Shown piece by piece: positions 16,667 to 63,786 of a DNA stretch of 64,000 bases. The translations under genes were made by a program, and so were the position numbers. The notes under the pieces were generated by a model. It saw only the letters and a list, made by a program, of their open reading frames with translations. It did no database searches and was not told the DNA's origin. How positions within the stretch are numbered: position 1 is the first letter of the stretch; every line of letters starts with the position of its first letter. The DNA is from Deltaproteobacteria bacterium (GTDB lineage Bacteria; Bdellovibrionota_B; Oligoflexia; Oligoflexales; Bog-1112): NCBI GenBank assembly GCA_947475005.1, contig CANJLI010000005.1, positions 5,858 through 69,857 on the forward strand, read 5' to 3'.

Positions 16667-16756
16667 CCGTCATCCCAAGGTCCTGAAAGGACCGTATGGG
16701 ATCTCGATAATTTCAATGAGATCCCATACGGCTGCTGCGCAGCCTTGGGATGACGG
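16667..16756. repeat. REPIN-like double-hairpin element
   Basis: ccgtcatcccaaggtcctgaaaggaccgtatgggatc ... gatcccatacggctgctgcgcagccttgggatgacgg. Confidence 0.85.
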
Positions 16757-16815
16757 ACTCTCGGCCCAGGGACACTCAAATGAAGACGGACTCGGTCCAA
16801 ACGGAGTGTCCCCCC

Positions 16816-21153: not shown

Positions 21154-21188
21154 AAAAATCCTCTCCCTAGGTCCCCCCGATATAATTT

Positions 21189-21278
21189 CTGTCATCCCAA
21201 GGCTGCGTAGCAGCCGTATGGGATCCCTGCGTTTTTATCGAGATCCCATACGGCTGCTACGCAGCCTTGGGATGACGG
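21189..21278. repeat. REPIN-like element, near-perfect palindrome
   Basis: ctgtcatcccaaggctgcgtagcagccgtatgggatccctgcgtttttatcgagatcccatacggctgctacgcagccttgggatgacgg. Confidence 0.9.
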
Positions 21279-25105: not shown

Positions 25106-25154
25106 ATGGGGGGGTAGGGATGAGATCGTGGACACCCACCGAAATCCCCCCACT

Positions 25155-25373
25155 CCGTCATCCCAAGGTCCCGGAGGGACCGTATGGGATCTCTGCTCCG
25201 TCATCCCAAGGTCCCGGAGGGACCGTATGGGATCTCTGCTCCGTCATCCCAAGGTCCCGGAGGGACCGTATGGGATCTCTGCGTTTTTATCGAGATCCCA
25301 TACGGCTGCTACGCAGCCTTGGGATGACGGAGCAGAGATCCCATACGGCTGCTACGCAGCCTTGGGATGACGG
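25155..25373. repeat. Cluster of five hairpin units: three direct (43-bp period), a central spacer, then two inverted
   Basis: 3 x ccgtcatcccaaggtcccggagggaccgtatgggatctctgct, then gcgtttttatcga, then 2 x gatcccatacggctgctacgcagccttgggatgacgg. Confidence 0.9.
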
Positions 25374-25430
25374 ACGCTGCTCGGAGGGGGGAGGGATGGG
25401 GATGACGGAATGGAATGAGGGATGACAGTT

Positions 25431-29110: not shown

Positions 29111-29184
29111 TTTTTCTTTTTCTTTTTCTTTTTCTTTCGTGGAAACTGCGCAGCTGGTTCCACGAAAGAAAAAAAAGAAAAAAA
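29111..29184. repeat. 74-bp palindrome filling the whole valS-tdk gap: T/C-run, 25-nt core hairpin, A/G-run
   Basis: tttttctttttctttttctttttctttc GTGGAAactgcgcagctggTTCCAC gaaagaaaaaaaagaaaaaaa. The core spans 29139-29163. Confidence 0.85.
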
Positions 29185-29882: not shown

Positions 29883-31544
29883 TTAATAAATAGGGTAGGT
29901 GCATCTTTTCTTTTCGATATCCGCATCTACGACAAAAGGAGCTTGCCAAGATTGGGCACGAGGGGTGAAACTGCACTCCATGAGCAAAGTAGACTTCGTT
30001 GCATCTGAATAAATTTCTACGATATGCTTGTCTCCAAATGAAATCCCGATCACATCCCAATAATGAGCGGAAGAAAGGGATGAACTTTCCAATCCGGAAT
30101 CCACAACGAGGTGGTAAACCTTTGGGTCGGTAGAGGTAACGCGAATACGCAATGGCGCCATGGGTTTTTGCTCCCGTAGCACGATTTCTTTTTTCAGTGT
30201 ACCTGTCTCTATATTCAATGTCTGAGGCTCTGCTACATACCCAGGTCGAGAAATTTCTACCACGTGAGGTCCTTGGTCAAGGGTGAGACGCATCGGTGTA
30301 GTTACATACTGACCTTGCTGCAATGGCTCTCCATCGATCTTGAGTGCCACGCGCTCCGGGGTGGTATGAAGCTCCAAAATCCCTTGCTGTTCCTTATGTG
30401 TGAGCAGATAAAAGACTCCTCCTGCGAGGAGTAAGATAAGGAGACCCAAGCCTGCCAATAGAAGGCCTCTACTCCCCTTTTTTCCATATATCATCTCGGT
30501 CTGACCCACTGCCGAGAGTTGGGTAGGAGAGGCAGAATCACCGGGCACGCCTGCTGTAGGGAGGGTAAGTTCGAGAGGCGCTTGGGCATCTTGCAACAGC
30601 TCGCGAATATGATCTTGCAGGGTGATTTTTCGCTCTGCCAATGTCTTTTTCATCAGGTGGCTCAGGTCTTCGGGAGTAAAGTCTGGGTAGCGTTTGTTAA
30701 TGTAATGACGCAGAGCCTTTTCAAATTCCTGGGCATTGAGATAGCGCATCTGGGGATTTTTTTGCAATCCTTTTGCCAAAATACCTGCCAGCTCCTCATC
30801 TACGAGGGGATTGAGTTGCTGCAAATCAAGGGGCATGTGGCATGTTTTTACATGTTGAATGGTCTCGATCTCATTATCACCCTGAAACAATCGCTTCATA
30901 GTGAGCATTTCCCAAAGAATAATCGAGAGGGAAAACACATCGGTGCGCACATCGAGGGACTGAGCAGAAATCTGCTCGGGGCTCATGTAGGCATATTTTC
31001 CTTTTACAATACCAGGTTGGGTTTCATTTGCTTTGTTGTTGGCATCGGCAATGCCAAAATCTGTGATTTTAACTTCAGCCTCAAAACTCACGATGATATT
31101 TTGGGGGGAGATGTCTCGGTGAATGATCCCGATGGGTTTGCCCGTAATATCATCCAGTTTGGTATGGGCATAATGAAGGCCTCGGGCTGCTTCGGCTGCA
31201 ATGTAGAGCGCACAGGGGATGGGAAGCTTGAGATCGGTTTGCTCACACTTCACCAGAAGGGTCCGCAAATCGCCACCCATCACAAATTCCATGATAATGG
31301 CATAGGAGCCCTCTACCTCTTCGAAGCCCTCCACTCGAACAATGTTGGCATGCTGCAGCCGTTTGCAAATATGGGCTTCATCGCGAAACATTTTGACAAA
31401 CTCTTCCTCAGTGGCATAACTGGGAAGTATACGTTTGATGCAGCAAATGCGCTGAAACCCATCCTCCCCGATCTGTTTGCCCAGGTAGATTTCTGCCATC
31501 CCGCCGCGTGCGATTTGTTTGAAAAGAATGTATCGATGGTCCAT
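29883..31544 (-). CDS. Ser/Thr protein kinase with TM segment and C-terminal PEGA-like domain (start trimmed to MDHRYILF)
   Basis: Hanks motifs GGMAEIY, HRDISPQN, DFG, YMSPE. TM segment LLLAGLGLLILLLAGGVFYLL. LKIDGEPL...ISRPGYV resembles a PEGA domain. Confidence 0.85.
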   Translation of the reverse strand: MDHRYILFKQIARGGMAEIYLGKQIGEDGFQRICCIKRILPSYATEEEFVKMFRDEAHICKRLQHANIVRVEGFEEVEGSYAIIMEFVMGGDLRTLLVKCEQTDLKLPIPCALYIAAEAARGLHYAHTKLDDITGKPIGIIHRDISPQNIIVSFEAEVKITDFGIADANNKANETQPGIVKGKYAYMSPEQISAQSLDVRTDVFSLSIILWEMLTMKRLFQGDNEIETIQHVKTCHMPLDLQQLNPLVDEELAGILAKGLQKNPQMRYLNAQEFEKALRHYINKRYPDFTPEDLSHLMKKTLAERKITLQDHIRELLQDAQAPLELTLPTAGVPGDSASPTQLSAVGQTEMIYGKKGSRGLLLAGLGLLILLLAGGVFYLLTHKEQQGILELHTTPERVALKIDGEPLQQGQYVTTPMRLTLDQGPHVVEISRPGYVAEPQTLNIETGTLKKEIVLREQKPMAPLRIRVTSTDPKVYHLVVDSGLESSSLSSAHYWDVIGISFGDKHIVEIYSDATKSTLLMECSFTPRAQSWQAPFVVDADIEKKRCTYPIY

Positions 31545-31663
31545 GGGTGCTTTTTTTCTCCCCCCTGGGGTGTCTCGAGCGTCCTCGGATCTCCTTTGGG
31601 TATCGGCAGTTGGCAACAGTAAGATGAGGGGGGAAAAAGGATGCAAATCCAAAGGAATGACCA

Positions 31664-32326
31664 TTGCCTACACAGACTACAGCCTCTAAAAGAAACAAGA
31701 CTCCAAAATCAAAGGGTATTTTCATTACCTTTGAAGGGGGAGAAGGGGTAGGAAAATCATCTCTGATCCAAGAGGTAGCTAAGCGCCTGACCCAGGAGAA
31801 GATCGCCCATATCGCAACCGGAGAGCCAGGGGGTACCCCCCGCGGCCAAGAACTCCGCCGCTGGCTACAAGCCTCCAAATGGCCCTCCGTCGCGGAGTTT
31901 TTGCTCTATTCCGCCGACCGAAGTCTACACGTGGAGGAAGTGATTCGTCCCGCCTTGGCCCAGGGCAAGTGGGTGCTTTGCGACCGATTTGTAGACTCCA
32001 GTCGGGTGTATCAAGGGCAAGCTGGGGGGTTAAATCGCTTGTTTATCGAGATCGTATCCACTCAGTGTACGGGGGGAATCGAGCCAGACCTTACATTCTT
32101 ATTGGACTGTGACCTCGATGTTTCCATGGGGCGGCTGGTGGGGCGAGAGGTTTTATCGCACTATGACCAGGCCAAACGAGCATTCCACGAGAAGGTCCGA
32201 TCTGGATTTTTGGCGCTTGCGGCGTTGAATTCGGACAGAATTGTGGTACTAGATAGTACCGCGCCTATAGCGGAATTGGTGACCCAAGTTTGGGATACAA
32301 TCAAGGAACGCGTGAATGGCAAGTAG
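31664..32326 (+). CDS. tmk: Thymidylate kinase (TTG start)
   Basis: P-loop FEGGEGVGKSS and DRF/DS motifs. Confidence 0.9.
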   Translation: MPTQTTASKRNKTPKSKGIFITFEGGEGVGKSSLIQEVAKRLTQEKIAHIATGEPGGTPRGQELRRWLQASKWPSVAEFLLYSADRSLHVEEVIRPALAQGKWVLCDRFVDSSRVYQGQAGGLNRLFIEIVSTQCTGGIEPDLTFLLDCDLDVSMGRLVGREVLSHYDQAKRAFHEKVRSGFLALAALNSDRIVVLDSTAPIAELVTQVWDTIKERVNGK

Positions 32327-33168: not shown

Positions 33169-34059
33169 ATGCAAGGTATAAATGTAGTCGGTGTGCAGTT
33201 TCGACGGGCAGGAAAGATCTATGATTTTTCTTGTGGGGATATCGAATTGCAGATCGGGGACTCGGTACTGGTGGATTCTGAACGAGGCCCTTCGATTGCA
33301 AAAGTAGCCACCGTTGGATTCCACAATCCGGTGCAAAAGACGAAGAAAAAACTGCAATCCATCGTGAGAAAATCCACGGAAAAAGAGCTGCAACGCAGCA
33401 GTCGCATCAGCCCAGAGGATGTACTTGCGTTTACCAAGGAAAAAATTTGGGACCTCAAGCTGAAGATGAAGCTTTTGAAGGCCGAGATTCAGTTTGGGGG
33501 AAGCAAGATCGTTATTTACTTCTCTGCTCCAGGGCGGGTGGACTTTCGGACCTTGGTGAAGGAACTTGCCAGTGGCCTGAAGTCTCGCGTGGAGCTTAAG
33601 CAGGTCGGCGCCCGAGATGAGACCAAACTCCTTGGGGGGCTTGGCGTTTGTGGACGAGAGTATTGCTGTTCCAGCTTTTTGCGGGAATTTGTCCCCGTCT
33701 CCATTCGGATGGCAAAGAACCAAAACCTTGCCATTAATCCAAGCAAAGTATCAGGAGGCTGTGGTCGATTGCTGTGTTGTTTGACCTATGAGAATGATGT
33801 CTATACCCACCTACGTCAGCAGCTCCCCCCTAGAGGAGCTAAAGTTCGACTCAAGAACCAAGAGACAAAGGTCCTGGTTTTAAAATCAGACTTTTTAAAT
33901 CAAAAACTCTTGGTAGAAACCATCGATGGCAAACACCTCACCTTGTCCCTCGAAGAGATTGAATATACTGCCGTACATAAAAAACCAGATCCTCAAGAAG
34001 ACTCCACCGGTGAAGACGAGGCTGAGTGGTCAGAATCCACCCAGTTAGAAGAAGATTGA
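33169..34059 (+). CDS. PSP1-domain protein (YaaT/RicT family)
   Basis: VGVQFRRAGKIYDFSCGDIELQIGDSVLVDSERG and the Cys cluster CGREYCCSSFL...GGCGRLLCCL. Lies downstream of holB. Confidence 0.85.
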   Translation: MQGINVVGVQFRRAGKIYDFSCGDIELQIGDSVLVDSERGPSIAKVATVGFHNPVQKTKKKLQSIVRKSTEKELQRSSRISPEDVLAFTKEKIWDLKLKMKLLKAEIQFGGSKIVIYFSAPGRVDFRTLVKELASGLKSRVELKQVGARDETKLLGGLGVCGREYCCSSFLREFVPVSIRMAKNQNLAINPSKVSGGCGRLLCCLTYENDVYTHLRQQLPPRGAKVRLKNQETKVLVLKSDFLNQKLLVETIDGKHLTLSLEEIEYTAVHKKPDPQEDSTGEDEAEWSESTQLEED

Positions 34060-34095
34060 TAAAGTTGCTATACGAGTTATTTCCTCACTCATGTC

Positions 34096-34250
34096 TCATT
34101 GCTGTATCCGAGTGAGCAATATATCAAACTGGCCCACTCTGTTACTTACACTTTGAACGGCATTATCAGGATTATATAGGGTAAAATTTTCAAGGCTACC
34201 TTCCGTAGTTCGTGTTTTATCCCATATGGTTGGATCAAACCGAAAATGCT
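34096..34250 (-). pseudogene. Truncated third copy (C-terminal ~50 codons) of the GH16-like gene
   Basis: The reverse strand reads ...FRFDPTIWDKTRTTEGSLENFTLYNPDNAVQSVSNRVGQFDILLTRIQQ*. This parallels the C-terminus ...DPTIWVKTKATQGGSEIYTLYNPDNAIQSVSDGVGQLDILLTRMQ* of the next gene. An in-frame stop lies upstream. Confidence 0.8.
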
Positions 34251-34335
34251 GTTTGCACTTTTTCCTACCAGAAGACTCTTGGTAAAAGTCTCATCTGTAG
34301 GGTAGAAGCTCACCCCCTTTATGGCATTGAGAGAG

Positions 34336-35298
34336 TCACTGCATCCGAGTGAGCAATATATCAAGCTGACCCACTCCGTCACTTACACTTTGAATGGCAT
34401 TATCGGGGTTATATAGGGTATAAATCTCGGAGCCACCTTGCGTAGCTTTTGTTTTAACCCATATGGTTGGATCAAGAGGGTTTTCGAAGTTGTCATACCA
34501 CTCTGCAACCGTGCTGAAATCTTCCTCGCTCTCTATATAAGGAAAATAACTGATAGAAGAATAAGAGATCTCATGTTCTTTCCATTTAGTTAGATCAACA
34601 GCTCCATCCCATTCGTTGTGAACATTACCACTTAACATGATTCGCTTGGGGGCAGAGAAATCGGTAACTTTCACTATTAGTATTTTTATATCATCCATGT
34701 ACCAAGTTATTAAGTTAGGCCTCCACTCGATGGAATAATTATGAAATTCACTAAAATAGGTAGGGGCCATATTTGTTATTGTGTATGCGCCTTCACAAGG
34801 ATGTACTACAGGAACTATGGTTTGAGCACCCCCTAAGATTTCAATATCAAACTCTTCCTGTGTTTCTGTACTATATAGAAAGAAGGCTGACACCGTTCCT
34901 CTAAAAGCCGCAGGCTTCATCCGTGCTGTGAATTTTCCATATTGAAAAGTCCTTGCTGTATAGATCTCTGCTGAATAGAAATGCTTTTCATTGCTCTTTT
35001 TGGGTTCAGAGACAAGATCTTGTGAGCTAGAATAGGAATACTGTTTAAAAAAATTGTGATTTCGGGGTTCAAGAGTGGAGGCTTGTGCTTTACCGAGAGA
35101 TCGGCCTGTATTATGGGTCTCACAATTAAAAGGCGTATAATCGGTAAGGGGGGATTTATTTTTTCCCCTTACCTGGGGGTCCTTTTGGGTATCGGAAAAA
35201 TCCATGCAACCAATTGTATATACAGAAATAAGAAGAAATACAAAAGAGTATTTAAAGTTCAAAAAAATCCTTTCAAGTTCAAAAAAATCAAACTGCAA
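34336..35298 (-). CDS. GH16-family (lichenase/laminarinase-like) glycoside hydrolase lipoprotein, copy 1 (probable TTG start at 35262)
   Basis: YGKFTARMKPAAFRGTVSAFFLY ... EEFDIEILG ... FHNYSIEWRPNLITWYMDD parallels Bacillus lichenase YGLYEVRMKPA...SSFFTY...DEIDIEFLG...YHTYAFDWQPNSIKWYVDG. Lipobox TIGC. Confidence 0.8.
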   Translation of the reverse strand: MQFDFFELERIFLNFKYSFVFLLISVYTIGCMDFSDTQKDPQVRGKNKSPLTDYTPFNCETHNTGRSLGKAQASTLEPRNHNFFKQYSYSSSQDLVSEPKKSNEKHFYSAEIYTARTFQYGKFTARMKPAAFRGTVSAFFLYSTETQEEFDIEILGGAQTIVPVVHPCEGAYTITNMAPTYFSEFHNYSIEWRPNLITWYMDDIKILIVKVTDFSAPKRIMLSGNVHNEWDGAVDLTKWKEHEISYSSISYFPYIESEEDFSTVAEWYDNFENPLDPTIWVKTKATQGGSEIYTLYNPDNAIQSVSDGVGQLDILLTRMQ

Positions 35299-35354
35299 AC
35301 TCTGTTTTTACTTCTTCCCGCTAGAAGCTCAACCCCTTTAGGGCATTGAGAAAT

Positions 35355-36284
35355 TCATTGCATCCGAGTGAGCAATATATCAAGCTGGCCTACTCCGTTA
35401 CTTACACTTTGAACGACATTCTTGGGGTTATATAGGGTATAGTTCTCAGGACTACCTCCCGCAGCTTGTGTTTTAACCCATATGGTTGGATCAAGAGGAT
35501 TTTCAAAGTTGTCGCGCCACTCTGGGACCGCGCTGAAATCTTCCTCATTCTCTATATAAGGAAAATAACTAAGAGAAGAATAAGAGATCTTATGTTCTTT
35601 CCATTTAGTTAAATCAACATCCCCATCCCACTTTTTGTGAACATTAGAACTTAACATGATTCGCTTGGCAGCAGAGTAATCGCTAACTTTCACTTCTAGT
35701 ATTTTTATATCATCCATGTACCAAGTTACTAATCTAGGCCTCCATTCAATGGAATAATTATGAAATTCATTAAAATAGGTAGCGTTCATATTTATTGTTT
35801 TGAAGGCTTTACAAGGATGTACTACAGGAACTATGGTTTTAGAACCTCCTAATATTTCAATATCAAACTCTTCCTGTGTTTCTGTACTATACAGGAAGAA
35901 GGCTGACACCGTTCCTCTAGAAGCCACGGGTTTCATCCGTGCTACGAATTTTCCATATTGAAAAGTTCTTGCTGTATAGACCTCTGCTGAATAGAAATAC
36001 TTTTCAGAAAGGTTGGAATTTTGGGCTTCGGAGACGAGATTTTGGGATTGAAAATAGGCATAGTTTTTAAACAGGTCACGATTTCGGGGTTCAGGAGCAA
36101 AATTTTGTGCATTAGCAAGAGACCGGCTTGTATTCTTGGCCTCACAATTAACGGATGTATAATCGGTAAGGGGAGGATTATCCTCCCCTCTTTTTACAGA
36201 TGAGGGCTCCCTTTTAGCTAAATTCATACAACCCACTGTATATATAGAAATAAACAGAAAGGCAGAAGAGTATTTAAATTTCAA
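35355..36284 (-). CDS. GH16-family glycoside hydrolase lipoprotein, copy 2
   Basis: Close paralogue of copy 1 with the same E-x-D-x-E motif (EEFDIEILG). Lipobox TVGC. Confidence 0.8.
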   Translation of the reverse strand: MKFKYSSAFLFISIYTVGCMNLAKREPSSVKRGEDNPPLTDYTSVNCEAKNTSRSLANAQNFAPEPRNRDLFKNYAYFQSQNLVSEAQNSNLSEKYFYSAEVYTARTFQYGKFVARMKPVASRGTVSAFFLYSTETQEEFDIEILGGSKTIVPVVHPCKAFKTINMNATYFNEFHNYSIEWRPRLVTWYMDDIKILEVKVSDYSAAKRIMLSSNVHKKWDGDVDLTKWKEHKISYSSLSYFPYIENEEDFSAVPEWRDNFENPLDPTIWVKTQAAGGSPENYTLYNPKNVVQSVSNGVGQLDILLTRMQ

Positions 36285-36322
36285 AATAATCCTTTCAAGT
36301 TCGAAAAGTTAAACCACCAATG

Positions 36323-37657
36323 CTACTTTTGATTCTTTCTGCTATAGTACTCTTGAGTTACTGTTTTATCAAATAGTTCTATGCGGTGCGTTATATTGTG
36401 ACACTTTTGAGCTAGCCTATGTCCTTGTTCTCTTATTATAGCCAAGTCTTTTCTTCGCTTGGGAGACAACCAGTAATCCACTGTTTTGTTTAAATTTTTA
36501 GGCGTTGAAGCTATATAATGCACATTCTCAATCATTCCTAATTGCCGCAAGAATGGGACATATAGCTTATCAGCCAGCAGAACTGTTCCTGTTGCAGGAA
36601 TTTCAAAATGTTTTGCAATGACATAGGGTCCAAAAGTTTTATCTGGATATGGCCCCCCCCCAACGGCGATGTCATAGTTTACAATCCATTGTGCAAAATC
36701 AGCCGCTTCTTCCAACGCATTTACTTCAGTATTATAGCCTTTGTGTATATGCTCTTTCCATAGAGGTGATTTTTTAACTTTAATTTCTTCACGTGCAACT
36801 TTGCGCAAAGGATACCAATCATCGTCGCTTTCCTTTCCCAATAAAAGGACTTTATGGGTTTTAGACGTTGCTTGTGAATCAAAAAAAGGTTGTGAAGCTG
36901 CATGAGGAAAGACATAACATGAGTTGATCTTAGAGGCGTCCACAAATTTCATCATATGCTCGGGATAGCGCGCAAACAGCACATCCATCCATGGGTAGGA
37001 GCGTTTAAGCGGTTCTATATCATCTGCCCAATTCAGATCTTCGACGATCAAAACTTTGAAAACCGGAAGAGTGGGTAAATCAGACCACTTGTCTAGAATA
37101 TTCGCTCTTAATACATAAAAAGCGACGACATCTGGTGGAGTGGCTGTTCCAATTTTATTCTGGATATTTTCAAGAAAATTAGGCCCAACTAAGTCGCTAG
37201 AATTAATTATATGCCAAGACTTTTTCCGTTGTAGCTCTTCTATAAAAATTCGGATGAATGTTGCTGTTCCTTTGTAAACTTTCGAGTCCGTATCTATAAC
37301 TATCACTTTTACTAATTTTGCCTCTTGTTGCTCTAGAGACAATGGAGATGGGTTGCTATTTTTGCAAGGGTGATTCAGAATATCGAAATTTCTTTCATGC
37401 TCTGGGCTTAATTTTAATGTAGAATCAGGCGTCACGACATGGAATGATTCAGGTATTGTTTGGTTATTACATCCTTTTTTAGATGGATCTCCAACACCTA
37501 AAGGACAATCGACGGGACACAGTTCAGCAGCCAGAAAAGCAGAAGGCGCCTGAGTTACAGAAACTGGAGAAGAATTCTTAATTGAAGCTCTACAAGCAGG
37601 CATAAACATAAGGAAAATCAAGATGTTAGGCAGAGCTTGGCAATTCATTATATGCAT
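36323..37657 (-). CDS. Lipobox-bearing protein with a C-terminal CgeB-like (GT1-fold) glycosyltransferase domain
   Basis: C-terminal HFEIPATGTVLLADK...ENVHYIAS...L.AI...G resembles the Glyco_trans_1_2/CgeB pattern. N-terminus LIFLMFMPAC. Confidence 0.5.
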   Translation of the reverse strand: MHIMNCQALPNILIFLMFMPACRASIKNSSPVSVTQAPSAFLAAELCPVDCPLGVGDPSKKGCNNQTIPESFHVVTPDSTLKLSPEHERNFDILNHPCKNSNPSPLSLEQQEAKLVKVIVIDTDSKVYKGTATFIRIFIEELQRKKSWHIINSSDLVGPNFLENIQNKIGTATPPDVVAFYVLRANILDKWSDLPTLPVFKVLIVEDLNWADDIEPLKRSYPWMDVLFARYPEHMMKFVDASKINSCYVFPHAASQPFFDSQATSKTHKVLLLGKESDDDWYPLRKVAREEIKVKKSPLWKEHIHKGYNTEVNALEEAADFAQWIVNYDIAVGGGPYPDKTFGPYVIAKHFEIPATGTVLLADKLYVPFLRQLGMIENVHYIASTPKNLNKTVDYWLSPKRRKDLAIIREQGHRLAQKCHNITHRIELFDKTVTQEYYSRKNQK

Positions 37658-37777
37658 TTCTTTAGCTTTCTAATAATTCAAATAAATCGGTTATCCTACT
37701 GATATCTATGAAAAGCTGGTCCGCTCAAAATTTTTTATATTTTTCCTCTGCACATTCTCTATGGATTTCTTATGAAA

Positions 37778-38626
37778 TCAAGGCGCAACACAGCCACTCG
37801 CTTGGTTTTTATCACGACGACCCATTTGATCGATGCCAGACTTTTCTGGATCGGTGCTAGTTTTAACAAGTTCTGGATTTATACAATATGCTTGAAATTT
37901 TGGATCTGTAAAGAAATATTCCCCAATTAATATATCAGTAGGCATATTTCTTAAAGGCATCACCTTCTCATTTATCTTGCGTGCACTTTCTGCGTTAATT
38001 AAATATGCGACATTTCCTGCTGTACAGCTCGCGCTTAAAAACGAATATCTCTGATCCCGTGTCTTTGGAGTCCGGTCCTTTGGGCAGCCCCAGTGATAAT
38101 TTGCATTGCAATATAGATAAATCAGATCCCAGTTTTTAGGCAGGTGCTTTAGAGTATCATCAAGACGATTTTTAAAATCAGGAGGAAGTTCACTATCGTC
38201 TTCTAAAACTAAAGCCACCTTATGGCCGCTCTTGATGACCATTTTTGAAACTTCATAGTGTGATAATTTATTTCCAACTTCACCTGGAGATAAAGGTTTA
38301 AAGGGTAACTTTGGATCGCATTGATAGGAATAACCCTTATCTGCATCTAGTATTTGCAATGCAGTAGAAGTACGCTCGTAATTAAAGGACATGCCGTAGA
38401 TAGCTGAAAATCGAGTGAATGGAAGTGCTAGCCCATCAAGTTGATCCTGCATGGCCCTCATCTTCTTTTTGTCACGATCTAAATTTATAACAATGGTTTC
38501 ATCAAGACTTTCTTCGGTATATGTTACCGGCCAAGTCCTCATTTGTGCTCTACGATCTGTCGTAGTTTGAAGACAACCTTGAAAAAGAAAAAAAAATGCC
38601 CCCAAATAGGAAACTGATTTTCTCAT
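37778..38626 (-). CDS. Glycosyltransferase family 25
   Basis: VINLDRDKKKMRAMQDQLDGLALPFTRFSAIYG, GEVGNKLSH and ALVLEDD match GT25 blocks. N-terminus LGAFFFLFQGC. Confidence 0.8.
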   Translation of the reverse strand: MRKSVSYLGAFFFLFQGCLQTTTDRRAQMRTWPVTYTEESLDETIVINLDRDKKKMRAMQDQLDGLALPFTRFSAIYGMSFNYERTSTALQILDADKGYSYQCDPKLPFKPLSPGEVGNKLSHYEVSKMVIKSGHKVALVLEDDSELPPDFKNRLDDTLKHLPKNWDLIYLYCNANYHWGCPKDRTPKTRDQRYSFLSASCTAGNVAYLINAESARKINEKVMPLRNMPTDILIGEYFFTDPKFQAYCINPELVKTSTDPEKSGIDQMGRRDKNQASGCVAP

Positions 38627-39124
38627 TTCTACTCCCTGATATTTTTCTACTCATTTATTGGGCAACAATTTTTTGGACATAAAAAACCTTGGGCTCTAAC
38701 CACAACTAAATGTCATTGCCAGAGCCCAAATCTGCTCTTTTTTTACAATCGTCACTCTTGTGCCATCATCTCTTTATTATGAAATATTGTCAAATTTAGA
38801 TACAATTTGGAAAATAATTTCGATGGACACTATTCTTCAAATCGCTTGTTAGATTTTAAATCCACAAAAAAAATGCAAAAAATCTCGTATAAAAAGGATG
38901 TTAATAGAAATTAAGTTTCACAAAGAGTCTATTGACCCTAGCTCAAAAAACGATGTAAAATATGAAGCAACACTTTTAAAAATCACTTCATTTGGTAAAA
39001 AAAAAGCTATTAGCTATTAATAAAGAGAAATTTATGGGGCTCTATAGTGTATCTTGAAGATTTGATTGGTTAAAAATTATCCAATTTCGAAAACAAGAGT
39101 TATTTTATATTCAAGGGGGGCCCT

Positions 39125-40039
39125 ATGAGGCTTTATTCTATTCTCTTATTTGCTCTAGGTATTTCCTCCTGTAGAATTACCTCTGAGGACAGAGGAAATG
39201 AAATGTCCTCTATTATTTCTGATGTGGGAATCCCCAAAAAAATTCATCAGGTATGGATAGGACAAGACAAAGAACCGGATTATAATCAGTATTATAAGGA
39301 GTCTATGTCTAAACATGCTCCAAATCATGAGTATAAACTTTGGACCAATAAAGATCTGACGCGAGAAAATTTTCCCATTGTGTACGACTATATACTGCAA
39401 GCAAGCGAAGCAGGTAAAAGAAAATATGGCGTAGACCCAAAAATGTGGAATGGGACACCTACAAGAAAATTAGCTCAAATTTCTGATCTGATGCGTCTTG
39501 AAATTATCTATCATCATGGAGGATTTTACTTTGATGTTAAAACAGAACTTTTAAAATCAATTGACCATTTAAGTACTCCAAATATTTCATTTGTTGTCGC
39601 CAATGAAGACCCTTGTGGACTTACATGTAAGAGTGGAAATAAACTATACCTCTCTAACTCGATCTTCGCTTCAGCTCCTAATAGTAAGATTCTTCAACGC
39701 TTGCTGAAGAAAGACCGGTTAGAACAAATTAAATTCGATCGAGACGAAGTCAATGAAGAAACTGGGCCTTTTTATTTTCGTTCTGGTATTCTTAATGCAA
39801 ATGAAGTGCATCTATTAAAAACAGATGAGGCCTTCCCATACATTTCTTGGACCTCTCCTTATCAAAAAGCAGGAGTTGATAGATGCCTTTCAAAAGAACG
39901 TGATTCACTTAAAACAAGCGATGATCACGTTAAGACAATAATTATAAAAAATGAGACTGTGTACTTAGAATACCCTTGTGAAAAATATCCTACCAGCCTC
40001 TTAGTCATGCATTGGAATTTGGGAGGAACCTGGAAGTAA
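39125..40039 (+). CDS. GT32-type (Gly_transf_sug/OCH1-like) glycosyltransferase
   Basis: IPKKIHQVWIG...EYKLWTN...ISDLMRLEIIYHHGGFYFDVK matches the family signature. Lipobox GISSC. Confidence 0.75.
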   Translation: MRLYSILLFALGISSCRITSEDRGNEMSSIISDVGIPKKIHQVWIGQDKEPDYNQYYKESMSKHAPNHEYKLWTNKDLTRENFPIVYDYILQASEAGKRKYGVDPKMWNGTPTRKLAQISDLMRLEIIYHHGGFYFDVKTELLKSIDHLSTPNISFVVANEDPCGLTCKSGNKLYLSNSIFASAPNSKILQRLLKKDRLEQIKFDRDEVNEETGPFYFRSGILNANEVHLLKTDEAFPYISWTSPYQKAGVDRCLSKERDSLKTSDDHVKTIIIKNETVYLEYPCEKYPTSLLVMHWNLGGTWK

Positions 40040-40101
40040 TCTTTTCTACCTCAATTTTTAGAAATTAAGGCTTATCTGCATCAGATTTTTTAGAGGAAAA
40101 A

Positions 40102-41322
40102 ATGAGACTTCAATTCATCTGTCCTTTTCTTTTTTGCATAATTGCTTGCGCTCAAATTAGAAATGAAAATGAGCCTTTTCAGTTTTCCCCTCTTCGTTCT
40201 TTGGCTGAATTCCCGACAATGCGAATTTTTCCAGAAGATGAAAACATAAAAAATTCGGATTCAGAAAAATTCAATACTCAGTTTAAAAAATATTTTCGAG
40301 TCATTGATCAGAGCGACTCTTCTGAAGAAATTGTAGATATTAATTTGTTTATGGGAACCGTCCATTCAAACCAATTAAAAAATGGAGTTGAAAATTGGAT
40401 TTTCCTTGACCCAACTGCACAAATAGATGCATCTTCATTAAAAGATATTGATACCGTAATCAGCAAAAATGCTGAGTTTACATTGCTTATTCCATATACA
40501 AAAAATAAGAAAAAAGAATTTTTTCATGTCGCTGAATTAGATGGTGAAAATTTCTCTACCCAAATAAGAGTGGTTTATGACAGCTATGTAGAAAGACGAC
40601 CAATATCTATTTCTAAATCATTCTATATAAATTTAGATCGATCTACCGATAGAAAAAAATTTATGGAGAAGCAGAATCAAGAATACGGACTCAACCTAAC
40701 CAGATTTCCTGCTGTAGATGGATCCGTTTTTAAAAATCAGTACATCGTCCAGCCGGAAACATCAATTTTACAAAAGCTTACCTATGGTCAAGATGAATTT
40801 TTATATAATTATAGAAAAGACCATTACGGAAAAGGGATGACTTTTGGTGAGATCGGAAATTTTTTAAGTCTTTTTTATATTATGAAAACCATAGTGGAAG
40901 ATAATTATCCAATCACATTAATTCTTGAAGATGACGCCAAAATTCCCAAAAATTTTAATGCTAAAATAGGAAATTATCTTAAGAAAGCACCGAAAAATTG
41001 GGACATCATATATCTTTATTGCAATTCTCATGAATCTTTTGGTTGTAACTATAGATTTAAAAAAACAAGAGATGGATTATTTAGCACCCTTAGCGGAGGA
41101 AGTTGCGTAGCCGGTATGGTAGCGGCTGTTCTTAGCCAAAAGGGTGCTAGAAAAATACACAGACAATTACTTTTACCGATCTCCCGCCCCGTCGATATGC
41201 TGATTGGAAACCAATTTATGCCACAAAAGTTGGATGAATTTTCCGCTTTTTGCACAACGCCAGAACTTGTGACTACCGGCGATTTAGGTTCTGAAATCAA
41301 AGGAATGGGGAGAGAGCATTAA
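40102..41322 (+). CDS. Two-domain protein: unknown N-terminal ~170 aa plus a GT25 glycosyltransferase domain
   Basis: FYINLDRSTDRKKFMEKQNQEYGLNLTRFPAVDG, GEIGNFLS, LILEDD. Lipobox IIAC. Confidence 0.75.
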   Translation: MRLQFICPFLFCIIACAQIRNENEPFQFSPLRSLAEFPTMRIFPEDENIKNSDSEKFNTQFKKYFRVIDQSDSSEEIVDINLFMGTVHSNQLKNGVENWIFLDPTAQIDASSLKDIDTVISKNAEFTLLIPYTKNKKKEFFHVAELDGENFSTQIRVVYDSYVERRPISISKSFYINLDRSTDRKKFMEKQNQEYGLNLTRFPAVDGSVFKNQYIVQPETSILQKLTYGQDEFLYNYRKDHYGKGMTFGEIGNFLSLFYIMKTIVEDNYPITLILEDDAKIPKNFNAKIGNYLKKAPKNWDIIYLYCNSHESFGCNYRFKKTRDGLFSTLSGGSCVAGMVAAVLSQKGARKIHRQLLLPISRPVDMLIGNQFMPQKLDEFSAFCTTPELVTTGDLGSEIKGMGREH

Positions 41323-41334
41323 TTTTAAATAGAA

Positions 41335-42597
41335 ATGGAGTTGACAATGGAATCTATCTTAAAATTAACACTGTTTTCTCTTGTCTTTTACTTTACCCTT
41401 CAATCTTGTTCGTCAATTAAAATTAAAAATGATGACAGTGACATGAGGAATAAAACAAAGATTAATGGAAAATTAGTTGAAGTTAATTTTGGAAACCGTC
41501 TATGCAAACACCCCGATTTTAAGGATTCACGAATCCCTGAGTTACAGGCAACTCACACTATAGAAAGGTTGAATGATCCAATCTTCAAAGCTGCCATACA
41601 ATATGAAATCCCTCTTATAAAATTTCAATATAACTCATCCATTGTTCGCATTGATGATTCTGGTTATTTGATGACAGTAAGATTTGATTGCACAAACCGG
41701 TCTAATCAAAATACGCAAAGCTACACCCTGGTCCATGAACTCAATAATGAGCTCACACCTGTGTCCGACTTGCAGTTTTTAAAAATACCTTCATTTCTAG
41801 ATGCAAAAATAGAAAATGGTATCGCCGAAGATATGAGACTGTTTAAAATTAAAGATCAAATATATGGAACAATAGGTGATAATCTAGACGGAAGAAATTA
41901 TTATTTTCCTGATAGACGAATACACCTTCTTAAAATTTCTACAGAAATGGGGGAATGGAAAGCAAAATCAATTGAATTTTTTTCTTCCCCGAAAGACTCC
42001 CCTATAAAAGGACCCGAGAAAAATTGGGCCCCTATCCCTATTTTTACCAGCTCCGACTCAGAATCACCACTTCTCGTCTATGCGCTAGATCCCCAATATA
42101 TGCTTGCTAAAGCCACTCCGAATAAAACAATACAGGGAGAAAGAGAGATTGAAATAGTCAAACCCTGTAACAGGACACTCCCCTGGGATCGCGCTCAATA
42201 CGGAAAACTTCGGGGCGGTACCCCATTGATTTGGTTAAATGAGCTGCAAGGATATTTAGGTTTTTTTCATACGGCAAAGCATCTGGAAAATGAAAGAGGC
42301 AATATATACTACATGGGAGCCTATGTAGTGAATGGTACAACTAAGTGTGTATCTCATATTTCTCCCGCTCCTTTACAGTACACTGGCATGTATGATGCAA
42401 AAGAAGAAGAAAAAGGGTTTTGGATTCATAATGCGGGGCCAGATACTGAAGTGATATTTCCAACTGGGGTCGAAATTTCTGTTTGGGAGGGGCAGCAGGT
42501 AATTATTGTATCAGCAGGAATCAATGATTACAGAGTAAAAAATTTTATCCTAGACAGACAAGCTCTAACTGAAAGTTTGTCGAAAATAACGCCATAG
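41335..42597 (+). CDS. Lipobox-bearing hypothetical protein; possibly a GH130/GT108-like beta-propeller (weak)
   Basis: 420-aa ORF with N-terminus FYFTLQSC. The short motifs AEDMRLF and PEKNWAPIP recall DUF377/GH130-type enzymes, but nothing more supports this. Confidence 0.5.
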   Translation: MELTMESILKLTLFSLVFYFTLQSCSSIKIKNDDSDMRNKTKINGKLVEVNFGNRLCKHPDFKDSRIPELQATHTIERLNDPIFKAAIQYEIPLIKFQYNSSIVRIDDSGYLMTVRFDCTNRSNQNTQSYTLVHELNNELTPVSDLQFLKIPSFLDAKIENGIAEDMRLFKIKDQIYGTIGDNLDGRNYYFPDRRIHLLKISTEMGEWKAKSIEFFSSPKDSPIKGPEKNWAPIPIFTSSDSESPLLVYALDPQYMLAKATPNKTIQGEREIEIVKPCNRTLPWDRAQYGKLRGGTPLIWLNELQGYLGFFHTAKHLENERGNIYYMGAYVVNGTTKCVSHISPAPLQYTGMYDAKEEEKGFWIHNAGPDTEVIFPTGVEISVWEGQQVIIVSAGINDYRVKNFILDRQALTESLSKITP

Positions 42598-49381: not shown

Positions 49382-49502
49382 CCGTCATCCAAAGGCTGCA
49401 AAGTACCGAACGACCGTCATCCCAAGGTCCCGAAGGGACCGTATGGGATCCCTACGTTTTTATTGAGATCCCATACGGCTGCTTTGCAGCCTTGGGATGA
49501 CG
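49382..49502. repeat. Partial hairpin unit plus a full REPIN-like pair
   Basis: ccgtcatccaaaggctgcaaagtaccg, then ccgtcatcccaaggtcccgaagggaccgtatgggatc ... gatcccatacggctgctttgcagccttgggatgacg. Confidence 0.85.
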
Positions 49503-51498: not shown

Positions 51499-51505
51499 CC
51501 CCCCT

Positions 51506-51595
51506 CCGTCATCCCAAGGCTGCGTAGCAGCCGTATGGGATCTCGATAAAAACGCAGGGATCCCATACGGCCCCTTCGGGACCTTGGGATGACGG
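51506..51595. repeat. REPIN-like double-hairpin element
   Basis: ccgtcatcccaaggctgcgtagcagccgtatgggatc ... gatcccatacggccccttcgggaccttgggatgacgg. Begins 8 nt after the mtgA stop. Confidence 0.85.
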
Positions 51596-55820: not shown

Positions 55821-55915
55821 CAAAGGGGATACTCACCAGTCCAGCGGGGACACCCGATGCGAATGTCCCGAATGGCGCTTCCTTAAGCGTACGATTTGCC
55901 TAACTCCTTGGAAAT

Positions 55916-56005
55916 CCGTCATCCCAAGGTCCCGAAGGGACCGTATGGGATCCCTGCGTTTTTATCGAGATCCCATACGGCTGCTGCGCAGCCTTGGGAT
56001 GACGG
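55916..56005. repeat. REPIN-like double-hairpin element
   Basis: ccgtcatcccaaggtcccgaagggaccgtatgggatccctgcgtttttatcgagatcccatacggctgctgcgcagccttgggatgacgg. Confidence 0.9.
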
Positions 56006-56108
56006 ATGGGTTGCCATCTTGAATGTAAGCAAAAGATGACAATTCCTTTCTTAAGGAAGCGGCATTCTCGGGTGTCCCCTCCTTTATCCGAGGAGGATGC
56101 CACCTCTC

Positions 56109-61796: not shown

Positions 61797-62192
61797 ATGA
61801 GTCGATGGATGTTTGTCTTCCGTGTGGCCTCTTTCAGTGTCCTTGTTTCCTCTGGTGTTTCTTATTGGGCGGTACGCGAAGCCCACGCCATGCAGCAACG
61901 CTCTCACCCGAACCTCACCGCTCATCCCCTTACACCCGAACGATTACAACGCGTCAACTTCTATCTCGATCAGATGATTGCAGAATTTCCAAACGATTTA
62001 TTCCATTCAGAAACACGGGCTTTTTTGCAATCCCTTCGCCATAATGTGGCCCCTAAAGAACGCTATTACAGCTTTCTTCGATTCTCCGAAGGATTCCCTG
62101 CATATGGCTCTCGTTCTTTGGAGTTTGCACCCCACTTTGTGGAGTTGGCTTTTCAAGCCAATCAGGAGATTCACTCCGTTCATGGATTGTGA
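61797..62192 (+). CDS. Hypothetical protein with N-terminal hydrophobic segment
   Basis: 131-aa ORF, FVFRVASFSVLVSSGVSYWAV. No recognised motif. Confidence 0.45.
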   Translation: MSRWMFVFRVASFSVLVSSGVSYWAVREAHAMQQRSHPNLTAHPLTPERLQRVNFYLDQMIAEFPNDLFHSETRAFLQSLRHNVAPKERYYSFLRFSEGFPAYGSRSLEFAPHFVELAFQANQEIHSVHGL

Positions 62193-62750
62193 TTTTTTCT
62201 TTTTTGTTGTTTTTTTGGGAAACCAGCTGCGCAGTTTTCCCAAACCCTTCCTTGCCTCGCAATGGGAGAACGAGGATCCATTTCCAGAATAGCACGTCAA
62301 GGCCGGCGCTCGCTCGGGGCCTCCCACCCTCTCAAAATCGCAGACAGTATTTTAGTCATGGAAGTAATCTCTCGGCTGCGATTTGTGACCCGGGTAGGTC
62401 CCCCCAAGCGGCTGCCCTTGACGCGCCATTCTGGAAATGGATCTCCGTTCTCTCGCTGCTACCAGATCTTTGCAGCTACGGGAGAGAGCGGTAGAATTCC
62501 TTTTGGTTATCATTTGAGGGGCCAAGGGCAGCCAGGTAGAGGGATCCCGGCGGGTCGAAATCGCAGCGGACGTTCTGGGTTCCATGACTGGGGCTTACTC
62601 TGCGATTGAGAGAGTCGGGAAGAATCTGCCTGAGCGCCGGCCTTGGCATCTAACATGATAACCGAAAGGAATCCCACCGCCTTCCCTTGCGAAGCAAGGA
62701 GGTGTGGAAACTGCGCAGCTGGTTCCACGAAAAAAAGAAAAAAGAAAAAA
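62193..62750. repeat. ORF-free ~560-bp nested palindrome: four ~90-bp modules in alternating orientation, capped by inverted copies of the 25-nt core hairpin and by T/C- versus A/G-runs
   Basis: Left cap is t/c-run + gggaaaCCAGCTGCGCAGTtttccc (62217-62241). Right cap is gtggaaACTGCGCAGCTGGttccac (62704-62728) + a/g-run. Internal arms are ccatttccagaat/attctggaaatgg, aaatcgcag/ctgcgattt (twice), caaggccggcgctc/gagcgccggccttg and ccaagggcagcc/ggctgcccttg. Confidence 0.8.
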
Positions 62751-62767
62751 CAACTACCTGGGTAGTT
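62729..62767 (-). terminator. Intrinsic terminator of smpB
   Basis: On the minus strand, hairpin AACTACC-ca-GGTAGTT (62752-62767) sits 14 nt after the smpB stop and is followed by ttttttcttttttcttttttt. Confidence 0.7.
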
Positions 62768-62780
62768 ACAAAGAAAAAAA

Positions 62781-63242
62781 TTACACTCTAACTTTAATTT
62801 TATGATCCCGTTCAATCTCCCGTTGAGTCTCTCGCTTCTTGGTAGTTTGGCGCTTATCGTACTGCTTCTTACCTCGTGCAATAGCAATTTCGACTTTGAC
62901 ATACGCCTTCTTGAGATAGATCTTCAACGGAATAATGGTATTGCCACGAGTGGAAACATGCTCCTCGAGCTGTAGCAATTCCTTTCGATGAAGCAACAGC
63001 TTTCTCGGGCGAGCTTCTGCATGGTTGTGGATATTGCCTTGGGAGTAAGGCGCAATCTTCACCTGCATCAAAAAGGCCTCCCCATCGGGAGTAATATTGA
63101 TCCACCCATCCGTCAGGTGCACATGCCCCTCTCGAATGGATTTGACCTCGGTACCTTGCAGCATAAGACCCGCTTCGAAGGTCTCGATAATTTCATATTC
63201 GTGGAATGCCTTCCGGTTTTGCATCAGAATTTTGAGGGTCAT
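62781..63242 (-). CDS. smpB: SsrA-binding protein
   Basis: NRKAFHEYEIIETFEAGLMLQGTEVKSIR ... IARGKKQYDKR. 153 aa. Confidence 0.95.
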   Translation of the reverse strand: MTLKILMQNRKAFHEYEIIETFEAGLMLQGTEVKSIREGHVHLTDGWINITPDGEAFLMQVKIAPYSQGNIHNHAEARPRKLLLHRKELLQLEEHVSTRGNTIIPLKIYLKKAYVKVEIAIARGKKQYDKRQTTKKRETQREIERDHKIKVRV

Positions 63243-63393: not shown

Positions 63394-63786
63394 ATGCTCA
63401 TGATTTCTAAGACAAAAACAGCGACTCTACTCTCTTTCCTTTTCACAGCCTCCTTGTGGGGGGCAGATGAATCAAGACCCTACCTGGAGCACCCACGTAC
63501 AGCAGGAACGGCATATTTTTTCGAGAAAGATTGTTCAAAGGCACGGGAATCGAAAAAGAGACGAGAAGATACTCGAAAAACGACCGTACCCTCTCAGAAA
63601 GAAAAAGAAAAAGAAAAAGATCCAGACATAGCGACTGCTCTATTTGAGCTTTTCTTCGGATACAACCCACCCCTTCAACGCAGCCTAAAAACTCCAAAAC
63701 CTTCCACAGTTTACTTTAAAAATTCTGCTTATGACCCCTCCTCCGCCCCTAAAGACAATCCCAACTTTGACAGAAGAAGGCAGTAG
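63394..63786 (+). CDS. Small secreted protein with a basic KEKEKEK low-complexity stretch
   Basis: Signal peptide MISKTKTATLLSFLFTASLWGAD. Paralogous N-terminus to the next ORF. Confidence 0.5.
   Translation: MLMISKTKTATLLSFLFTASLWGADESRPYLEHPRTAGTAYFFEKDCSKARESKKRREDTRKTTVPSQKEKEKEKDPDIATALFELFFGYNPPLQRSLKTPKPSTVYFKNSAYDPSSAPKDNPNFDRRRQ

Follow-up and report, generated by a model that had tools for sequence, protein, structure and literature searches.

Is the gene-free palindrome that separates smpB from its convergent neighbour in an uncultured, poorly known freshwater lineage a structured RNA, a transposable element or a repeat of another kind? The question is raised by a 64,000-nt stretch of DNA from Deltaproteobacteria bacterium (GTDB Bdellovibrionota_B; Oligoflexia; Oligoflexales; Bog-1112; assembly GCA_947475005.1, contig CANJLI010000005.1, positions 5,858-69,857 of the forward strand), which is referred to here as the window and whose positions serve as coordinates throughout. 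The element under study occupies ~560 bp (62193-62750), is bounded by the stop codon of hyp131 on the plus strand and the 3' end of smpB on the minus strand, and was compared with related or same-species contigs and loci labelled L001-L030. In an original prediction, it had been described as a nested palindrome and a candidate large structured RNA or foldback element. The observation itself was confirmed in the present analysis, and the interpretation was supported in part: the element is neither a known RNA nor a plain miniature inverted-repeat transposable element (MITE). The reading favoured here, in which our confidence is evenly divided, is that of a compound extragenic palindrome of the REP (repetitive extragenic palindrome), BIME (bacterial interspersed mosaic element) or REPIN (REP doublet forming a hairpin) kind, acting through folded hairpins and not as a stand-alone RNA gene. 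A functional RNA or single-stranded DNA (ssDNA) element is a minority reading.

Architecture of the element

The modules, stems, loop motifs, runs and caps that had been described were all found at or within 2 nt of their expected positions (Table 1). A terminal inverted repeat, composed of a T/C-run, a 25-nt hairpin repeat (hp) and CCTCCTTGC, encloses two ~200-nt imperfect hairpins, which are mutually inverted copies. The outer arms of the window element span 59 nt and are 76% complementary, and the interval as a whole is 66% self-complementary over 592 aligned columns. The two hp copies, hpL on the left and hpR on the right, match at 21 of 25 positions when compared as inverted copies and at just 14 of 25 as direct ones. 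Between them lie four modules of ~110 nt (r1 to r4) in alternating orientation, which proved to be homologous to one another when aligned. Each hairpin has its own local stem (62278-62290 with 62428-62440 in hairpin 1; 62497-62513 with 62655-62671, including one T.G, in hairpin 2), and a AAATCGCAG/CTGCGATT stem is present in both. Perfect long-range matches connect the two hairpins (62298-62311 with 62632-62645, and 62410-62420 with 62523-62533).

The motif CAAGGSCRGC occurs five times in the 64-kb window, against 0.79 expected, and four of the five occurrences are inside the element. These four sites alternate in orientation at a spacing of ~113/225 bp and fall into two fixed types, CAAGGCCGGC and CAAGGGCAGC, arranged in the order 1-2-2-1.

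Beside each hp there is also a conserved 9-mer (62246-62256 and 62694-62702; L022:2269-2277 and 2702-2710), which reads CCTCCTTGC on one strand and GCAAGGAGG on the other. The former is anti-Shine-Dalgarno-like and the latter perfectly Shine-Dalgarno-like, with neither a suitably spaced start codon nor a conserved open reading frame (ORF) after it.

A maintained structure with a conserved, mismatched core

In a second species (L022; SmpB 87%, hyp131 83%), a homologous gene-free element of ~510 bp adjoins the smpB stop codon, so that the element lies directly 3' of smpB in both species. One of its ends consists of a T-run, hp and CCTCCTTGC, the other of the exact inverse (~36-40 perfect bp), and its blocks, in window order, are CAAGGCCGGCGCTC, GGCTGCCCTTG, CAAGGGCAGC and GCCGGCCTTG. 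Conservation outside the strain, on which the original prediction had laid weight, is thereby established. The two elements share ~58% identity, including stretches of 12-31 nt with few or no differences, and the 4-fold degenerate sites of smpB and hyp131 are saturated between the two species (20/53 and 20/52 identical; 38%). The lower stems are wholly different between the two species, and between the two hairpins of each species, yet their complementarity persists (16/16 and 19/20 in the window; ~27/27 and ~36/38 in L022).

Covariation was analyzed in an alignment of the four hairpins, two each from the window and L022, with a consensus of 44 pairs. In total, 91.5% of the cells were paired, and 25 of the 44 pairs had changed on both sides. 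The values for pairing and covariation were reached by 0 of 500 shuffles, and sliding the partner by 1-3 columns left only 36-56% paired. The helix of the conserved blocks displayed no covariation, being kept as sequence. Since the architecture, the compensated stems and the conserved blocks have been retained despite saturated neutral sites, the structure is, on the evidence of these alignments, maintained and not decaying, in line with the earlier view of a functional fold rather than a decaying duplication. Moreover, the hairpins are no more alike inside a genome (52-60% identity) than between genomes (53-59%), and the four-module architecture is therefore older than the split between the lineages.

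All four hairpins carry a C.C mismatch and a G.T wobble in the block helix, on the strand that has the CAAGGCCGGC arm 5'; the mismatched core is CAAGG-C-CGGC opposite GCTG-C-CCTTG. Right after the block, the CAAGGCCGGC arm bears a 3-4-nt bulge in all four cases. The next internal loop is pyrimidine.pyrimidine on the CAAGGCCGGC-5' strand and purine.purine on the other (in the upper halves, Y.Y 32 versus R.R 3), and its bases vary between hairpins while their purine or pyrimidine character is kept. In both species hairpin 1 folds 12-20 kcal/mol better as the minus strand and hairpin 2 as the plus strand, a difference that is explained by the asymmetry of the core. Such mismatches would be lost if template switching homogenised the arms; that they have been retained at saturated divergence suggests selection, either on a strand-specific folded form (RNA or ssDNA) or on two distinct duplex sites.

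Another reading is that of a DNA site for a host protein, in which the four CAAGGSCRGC sites, possibly extruded as a cruciform, would serve in recombination, replication or nucleoid organisation. The conservation of two fixed 10-bp types in a 1-2-2-1 order, while the adjoining stems turned over, and the symmetry of the design on both strands speak for such a site. We nevertheless regard it as very unlikely, given that no skew switch or other replication landmark was observed at the locus, that the element is absent from sister lineages, that no candidate binding protein was identified, and that hp, on inspection, resembles a DnaA box weakly in the window and not at all in L022.

Table 1. Positions of the element's parts, its flanking genes and associated hairpins (window coordinates).
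Feature	Position	Strand	Description
T/C-run	62193-62216		outermost left arm; its partner is the A/G-run at the right end
hpL, left 25-nt hairpin repeat	62217-62241		GGGAAACCAGCTGCGCAGTTTTCCC; inverted relative to hpR
Outer stem, inner left part	62242-62261		has CCTTCCTTGCC (62246-62256), pairing with GCAAGGAGG on the right; L022 counterpart CCTCCTTGC
Module r1 (5' arm, hairpin 1)	62262-62345	+	base GGGAGAACG; variable lower stem CCATTTCCAGAAT; block B1 CAAGGCCGGCGCTC (62298-62311); AAATCGCAG (62335-62343)
Loop of hairpin 1	62346-62371		GTCATGGAA at 62355-62363, reverse complement of the loop-2 motif
Module r2 (3' arm, hairpin 1)	62372-62455	-	CTGCGATT; block B2' GGCTGCCCTTG (62410-62420); ATTCTGGAAATGG; TCCGTTCTCTCG
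Centre of symmetry	62455-62476		small 5-bp hairpin GCTGC...GCAGC
Module r3 (5' arm, hairpin 2)	62490-62572	+	TTCCTTTTGGTTATCAT; block B3 CAAGGGCAGCC (62523-62533); AAATCGCAG (62558-62566)
Loop of hairpin 2	62573-62596		TTCCATGAC at 62580-62588; replaced in strain variant L019
Module r4 (3' arm, hairpin 2)	62597-62685	-	CTGCGATT; block B4' GAGCGCCGGCCTTG (62632-62645); ATGATAACCGAAAGGAA; lower-stem part replaced and unpaired in L019
Outer stem, inner right part	62686-62703		GCAAGGAGG at 62694-62702; conserved in L022
hpR, right hairpin repeat	62704-62728		GTGGAAACTGCGCAGCTGGTTCCAC; identical to the solo copy at 29139-29163
A/G-run	62729-62750		outermost right arm; on the minus strand, U-tract after the small smpB hairpin
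Small hairpin AACTACC-TG-GGTAGTT	62752-62767	-	perfect; U-run after it on smpB mRNA; candidate smpB terminator
hyp131	61797-62192	+	131-aa orphan protein, lineage-restricted; convergent with smpB; left flank
smpB	62781-63242	-	153 aa, PF01668; right flank
Solo member of the hp family	29111-29184		between convergent valS and tdk; T/C-run, CGTGGAAACTGCGCAGCTGGTTCCACG, A/G-run

A dispersed family of short hairpins

The ends of the element belong to a repeat family. hpR and its flanks are identical to the solo palindrome between valS and tdk, 33 kb away. The connection that had been drawn with this short palindrome is upheld, as one relative has nothing but the short hairpin at the corresponding site. 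Further copies in relatives lie upstream of ruvB (L005) and between smpB and hyp131 (L008). The copies are near-identical inside a genome and show parallel differences between genomes (CAGCTGCGCAG in the window, CATCTGCGAAG in L022, CAGCTGCACCG in L008), which points to concerted evolution of the family. With its 25 nt and 6-8-bp stem, the hp unit fits the 20-40-nt imperfect palindrome of the REP type. The ~110-nt interior modules, on the other hand, exceed the size of a REP unit and are unrelated to hp. Three hp copies were counted at two loci in the 64 kb, in addition to those at other loci in relatives; the interior was seen at one locus, in the 64-kb window and the fetched loci. The hp units begin with CGTGGAA, GGGAAA or GCGGAA and lack a GTAG or CGTC tag.

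The position of the element between convergent 3' ends, and its hairpins flanked by T- and A-runs, recall bidirectional intrinsic terminators. The runs, however, are reversed: in either transcript the U-run comes before hp and the A-run after it, an order that a canonical terminator does not have. No terminator was found within the element in a terminator scan. The arrangement of a hairpin followed by a U-tract is confined to the separate small hairpin at 62752-62767, which, judged by its sequence, is likely the intrinsic terminator of smpB. The A/G-run had earlier been taken to double as the U-tract of that terminator, which is plausible together with this hairpin; the consensus scan, for its part, did not report a terminator there, its loop being too short for the rule of the scan. 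A similar sequence is found in L024, and the small hairpin is missing in the strain variants L003 and L004. In the valS-tdk palindrome (29111-29184) the runs are likewise reversed relative to a bidirectional terminator, so that a single long, A/U-rich hairpin can be formed from all 74 bp.

A second family of dispersed palindromes was observed at 15288-15383, 16666-16757, 21188-21278, 25150-25374, 49414-49502, 51501-51595 and 55910-56078, and also at L001:1-290 and L001:12791-12886. Its unit is a nested palindrome of ~92 bp, with halves that start with CCGTCATCCCAAGG (a CGTC-type tag) and an internal small hairpin, either GGCTGC-GTA-GCAGCC or GGTCCC-GGA-GGGACC. The copy at 25150-25374 consists of three direct half-units followed by two inverted ones, a BIME-like cluster; with such a family and such a cluster, the genome tends to gather repeats of this sort. 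A relationship between this family and the interior of the element was rejected, as local alignment scores were no better than those of shuffles.

Occupants of the same spacer in related genomes

The empty sites that the original prediction had proposed to look for in relatives are represented by L008 (SmpB 87%, hyp131 85%), in which the spacer between smpB and hyp131 measures 45 bp and is composed solely of the hairpin TTTTTCTT-GGAAACCAGCTGCACCGTTTTCC-AAGAAAGAAAAAAA. The corresponding spacers of L024 and L026/L027 (104 and 49 bp) contain palindromes of a different family, which resembles the second family of the window, and in L005 an unrelated gene is located 8 bp after smpB. On a rough tree, L008 and L005, both of which lack the element, branch within the clade to which the window and L022 belong. 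This implies either two or more losses of the element or two gains of it at a single site.

The other neighbour of the L022 element is a different gene, g145, which points away from it. A flipped orientation of the L022 element was considered, but neither orientation was favoured: alignment scores were equal both ways and the best matches of the individual hairpins were inconsistent, as expected of a palindrome. In a second sample of the L022 organism (L023:1-2155), the 3' part of g145 is joined to the middle of smpB in inverted orientation, followed by the element; relative to hyp131, the element and part of smpB run the opposite way. The palindrome may have provoked a chimeric assembly here; otherwise the inversion is real.

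Folding on both strands and the case for an RNA

The predicted RNA folds of the window element were considerably more stable than those of shuffled sequences, with -299 kcal/mol for the plus strand and -293 for the minus strand versus shuffle means of -191 and -185 (z-scores of -16.3 and -14.5; 0 of 100 shuffles as good). The minimum-free-energy (MFE) fold comprises an outer stem formed by the two ends, the hairpins r1:r2 and r3:r4 (~200 nt each) and a small central hairpin. A T- or Y-shaped three-way fold is thus available, in these models, on either strand. The element of L022 is predicted to adopt the three-way fold on both strands as well (-307 and -315 kcal/mol; z-scores of -19 and -21), with perfect stems of ~27-40 bp.

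Two mutually exclusive pairing schemes, local and long-range, had been proposed as a sign of a possible switch. The long-range matches are indeed perfect: across the blocks, r1 agrees with r4 and r2 with r3. Hairpin 2 is, moreover, a copy of hairpin 1 in inverted orientation, as is shown by the loops, which match as reverse complements. Given such an inverted copy, and two block types that are conserved as sequence, the r1:r4 and r2:r3 complementarity is automatic, while the imperfect pairing of the blocks inside each hairpin results from the difference between the two types. A switch is unnecessary to explain the two schemes, and the MFE folds of the window and L022 employ the local pairs and the outer stem only, leaving the long-range pairs unused.

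If the element acts as an RNA, it would be a long 3'-untranslated structure common to the smpB and hyp131 mRNAs, or one or two rod-shaped non-coding RNAs of ~200 nt, with functional internal loops and the stems as scaffold. We consider this unlikely. In the four hairpins, which come from two species at saturated divergence, covarying stems surround conserved mismatched loops; one strand of each hairpin is purine-rich in the loops (R.R 32 versus 3) and folds 12-20 kcal/mol better in 4 of 4 cases; and the place of the element directly 3' of smpB is common to both species. These points are in keeping with an RNA, as is a weak sigma-70-like site that a promoter scan located at the centre of the window element, aimed into hairpin 2. 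That site, however, is not conserved in L022, and the two species have no promoter in common. Perfect duplexes of ~27-40 bp are unusual for functional RNAs and would be substrates of RNase III, and the probable smpB terminator lies upstream of the element. The strand signal is incoherent: over the whole palindrome the counts of G.U and A.C are similar (13 versus 15), and in the consensus helices G.U favours the energetically worse strand (14 versus 5), so that helices and folding energies point in opposite ways. Close relatives that keep both flanking genes lack the element, and a strain variant is devoid of the lower stem of hairpin 2. With both strands folding equally and no promoter conserved, RNA function is neither shown nor excluded.

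Among known RNAs, the ~200-nt intergenic rods with internal loops are reminiscent of 6S, OLE, ROOL, GOLLD and raiA RNAs, and 6S-like rods had been one of the identities suggested at the outset. That suggestion did not hold. The element differs from these RNAs in its lack of a covariance-model match, the equal folding of both strands, the long near-perfect duplexes and the patchy distribution. A search of the whole window with Rfam 15 (6S, tmRNA, OLE, ROOL, GOLLD, raiA and others) returned no match at the gathering thresholds, and at E<=10 the elements of both species gave matches at chance level only. Two of the latter were rejected individually, namely THF-II (E 0.077) on the central hairpin, which has no counterpart in L022, and the plant miRNA model MIR408 on both L022 strands, a generic long-hairpin match. 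No tmRNA or tRNA was detected by ARAGORN in the window, and no tmRNA in nine related loci. The absence of a credible ORF was upheld: a six-frame translation of the interior had no homologue at E<=10 among 5.8 billion proteins.

Assembly and variation within the species

Palindromes are known to provoke chimeric contigs, and the odd contig L023, with its inverted part of smpB and the element, could raise the suspicion of an assembly artefact, for instance that a fold-back chimera arose when the metagenome was assembled. However, L001 and L017, two MEGAHIT contigs obtained from separate samples, have either an identical copy of the element or an intergenic gap of the same length (588 bp), a further 12 contigs were listed as sites where most of the neighbouring genes agree, and the homologous element of the L022 species was assembled in two samples. 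The same sequence was assembled independently, and the element is therefore no artefact; the probability that we leave to one is negligible.

Strain-level variation was nevertheless evident. In L019, L003 and L004 (samples ERZ27280140 and ERZ27263731), both flanks are at least 99.7% identical to the window, as is the sequence of L019 through modules r1-r3, but a segment of ~220 bp, from ~62550 to ~62770, is heavily diverged (L019:957-1184, L003:2092-2123, L004:1560-1591). The loop and the lower 3' arm of hairpin 2 are replaced in the variant, its lower stem is unpaired and the small terminator hairpin is missing. As the stem is unpaired, pairing is not inviolable, and the element is a hotspot of change. 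The divergence starts sharply inside module r3, which constitutes a recombination or replacement boundary.

The k=31 (Logan) contigs from three runs (L018, L020 and L021) all end at 62236, inside hpL, and L002 ends at 62743; MEGAHIT contigs read through where the k=31 contigs stop. These shared contig ends may represent coexisting haplotypes or graph junctions at a repeat. A related observation was made for L030, which ends at the valS-tdk hairpin with a terminal base that fits the smpB-side element and not the local sequence. All contigs of one species show the element in one orientation, and the opposite orientation was not seen among them. An invertible promoter (inverton) was rejected on this account, and also because no recombinase is present in the window and the flanking genes point inward.

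Further copies and the case for a transposon

Bacterial MITE and foldback elements such as Correia/NEMIS and ERIC are non-coding, a few hundred bp in length and bordered by terminal inverted repeats; they form long hairpins when transcribed and vary in presence among relatives. The element is similar to them in its size, non-coding nature, terminal inverted repeats and patchy presence. As a MITE-like, non-autonomous foldback transposon, it would have hp units as its terminal inverted repeats, diverged copies elsewhere, a transposase encoded outside the window, and solo hp sites that are empty or excised. In agreement with this, the terminal inverted repeats of L022 are perfect over ~36-40 bp, the 'empty' site of L008 has hp only, relatives carry the element in a patchy manner, and its G+C content is 57% versus ~44% in the flanks. 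The ~220-bp replacement between strains in otherwise at least 99.7% identical DNA could reflect recombination with another copy, and short-read contigs often break at hp.

The searches for further copies argue to the contrary, and we find a transposon quite unlikely. There is no target-site duplication in the window or in L022, as no direct repeats were detected outside the T/A-runs. A profile of eight modules, run with nhmmer against the window and all fetched loci, recovered the known elements only. Two structured DNA patterns of the interior had no true match in GTDB genomes, JGI metagenomes or viral contigs, collections that evidently do not include the source genome; the cellular collections gave a single match each, and as both matches lie inside coding genes, one gyrA-like and one ketoacyl-synthase-like, they were attributed to chance. 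A terminal repeat pattern had no match in viral contigs, blastn found none in plasmids and phages, and the spurious ORFs of the interior have no homologue. In several samples MEGAHIT contigs with the k141 label read through the 460-bp interior, which argues against near-identical copies in those genomes. No transposase, integrase, recombinase or Y1/RAYT (REP-associated tyrosine transposase) gene occurs among the ~40 ORFs of the window according to a Pfam scan, or in precomputed Pfam annotations of neighbouring genes. Furthermore, the same gene adjoins the element in both species and the hairpins are anciently diverged, for which vertical descent is a better fit than recent transposition. The element is thus unlike the Correia/NEMIS and ERIC types in its lack of target-site duplication, multiple copies or a related insertion sequence, and in its interior double hairpin with a mismatched core; a plain multi-copy MITE is not upheld by the copies found in the window, the related loci or the collections.

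Flanking genes and other features of the window

The genes on either side differ in their distribution. The hyp131 product has just seven homologues among 5.8 billion proteins, its orthologues being 85% and 82% identical to it. For SmpB, five relatives share 68-90% identity, the next-best matches are at most 61% identical, and the closest named matches beyond its own small group are from Oligoflexales metagenome-assembled genomes (57-60% identity). The ORFs of the window are ordinary chromosomal genes, including rpoN, lptABC, pyrG, valS, tdk, tmk and gcvP.

Upstream of smpB (63394-63786 and from 63791 onward; also L001:4720-5407), tandem paralogous genes encode small, secreted-looking proteins with the N-termini MISKTKTATLLSFLF... 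and MISKIKTAALLSFFL..., which have common ~94-nt stretches that are 80% identical; both the number and the length of these genes vary across relatives. Among the genes of a low-G+C island at 34000-42000 (35-39% versus ~45-52% elsewhere) are two for GH16 glycoside hydrolases, together with several for glycosyltransferases of family 25 and of the DXD type; the island may be a surface-polysaccharide cluster acquired by horizontal transfer. In addition, an 821-aa protein with a C-terminal WD40 beta-propeller (46-2511) and a 593-aa eukaryote-type Ser/Thr protein kinase (29883-31664) are encoded in the window, both noteworthy in an uncultured lineage of uncertain placement.

A proposed compound extragenic palindrome between convergent genes

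The attribution to a compound palindrome of the REP/BIME/REPIN kind, which we would back about as readily as not, draws on several of the above results. The ends of the element are hp units of a dispersed family, with solo copies at valS-tdk and at the smpB/hyp131 site of L008, and the same convergent spacer accommodates a different palindromic repeat in L024 and L026/L027. Both strands fold equally in both species, and L022 has perfect stems of ~27-40 bp, a combination that is usual for inverted repeats in DNA but not for functional RNAs. No Rfam match, conserved promoter or coding potential was found in the element, its structure is maintained in L022, and its distribution on the rough tree is patchy.

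REPs have been described downstream of ORFs and in spacers where genes converge, their inverted dimers folding up into larger structures (PMC3733652; PMC3116915), and their units have a GTAG or CGTC tag at one end (PMC3733652). The likeness extends to the short imperfect hp units, which are dispersed extragenically, downstream of genes and between convergent ones, to the alternating units that form larger hairpins in ssDNA or mRNA, and to concerted evolution within a genome (PMC3733652; PMC3116915), as well as to the occupation of one spacer by different palindromic repeats in different lineages.

Several features weigh against this attribution. One locus per genome was seen, and the scans of the collections gave no true match, unlike the populations of classical REPs and REPINs. 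hp is devoid of the GTAG/CGTC tag, and the window has no gene for a RAYT, a transposase or an integrase. The large interior of ~110-nt modules, unrelated to hp, is atypical, as are the 510-560 bp of the whole, its three-way fold and the long-term conservation of the architecture at one locus, across species at saturated neutral divergence. The mismatches that recur in four hairpins at such divergence would not be expected from homogenisation of the arms alone; they are indicative of a selected folded or bound form, which could equally be RNA. Finally, hairpins that are no more alike inside than between genomes suggest an old, vertically kept architecture, and hence a host function rather than a selfish repeat.

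Under the favoured attribution to an extragenic palindrome, the element could have arisen by two rounds of inverted duplication beside an hp unit. In the reverse step, collapse between short direct repeats common to the two hp copies would leave the solo form, T-run, hp and A-run, as it is present in L008 and at valS-tdk. The hairpins would act in the folded state, in ssDNA during replication or in read-through RNA, and the complementarity of their arms may be kept by intrastrand template switching, by selection or by both. A protein, either transposase-like or of the nucleoid, would presumably read the conserved mismatched core, and for the host the element might, like other REP-type elements, serve at the 3' ends of the convergent smpB and hyp131 transcripts as a barrier or stabiliser between them.

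A neighbouring interpretation is that of an undescribed, T-shaped structured element of ~0.5 kb kept downstream of smpB as a functional RNA or an ssDNA recognition structure, similar in logic to attC sites and the ends of IS200/IS605 elements yet unrelated to them. Its two ~200-nt hairpins would display the sequence-conserved core (C.C mismatch, G.U/T wobble, 3-nt bulge and, on one strand, a purine-rich internal loop) between stems that covary freely. attC sites and IS200/IS605 ends are recombination substrates that fold from a single strand, in which the structure is conserved, the stem sequence is free, and mismatches or bulges mark the strand. The element resembles them in its conserved structure with free stem sequence and in its conserved mismatches and bulges, and the outer stem with two internal hairpins has an analogue, in architecture only, in the T-shaped inverted terminal repeats of parvoviruses. 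It is, however, much larger than these structures and has no sequence similarity to them; neither an integrase gene nor one for an HUH or tyrosine transposase is located nearby, and no evidence of recombination was obtained at the site. In our estimate, such an element is a doubtful proposition.

Even as an extragenic palindrome, the element documents how a short REP-like hairpin can grow into a three-way palindrome of half a kilobase and collapse back, and that different palindromic repeats occupy one spacer between convergent genes in sister lineages. It also indicates that a structure of this kind can outlast neutral saturation by a wide margin, its stems being compensated. The strand-asymmetric mismatches, for which homogenisation of the arms alone is insufficient, are the interesting part: should they prove to mark a hairpin that a protein recognises, or an RNA motif, the element would constitute a new structured non-coding element.

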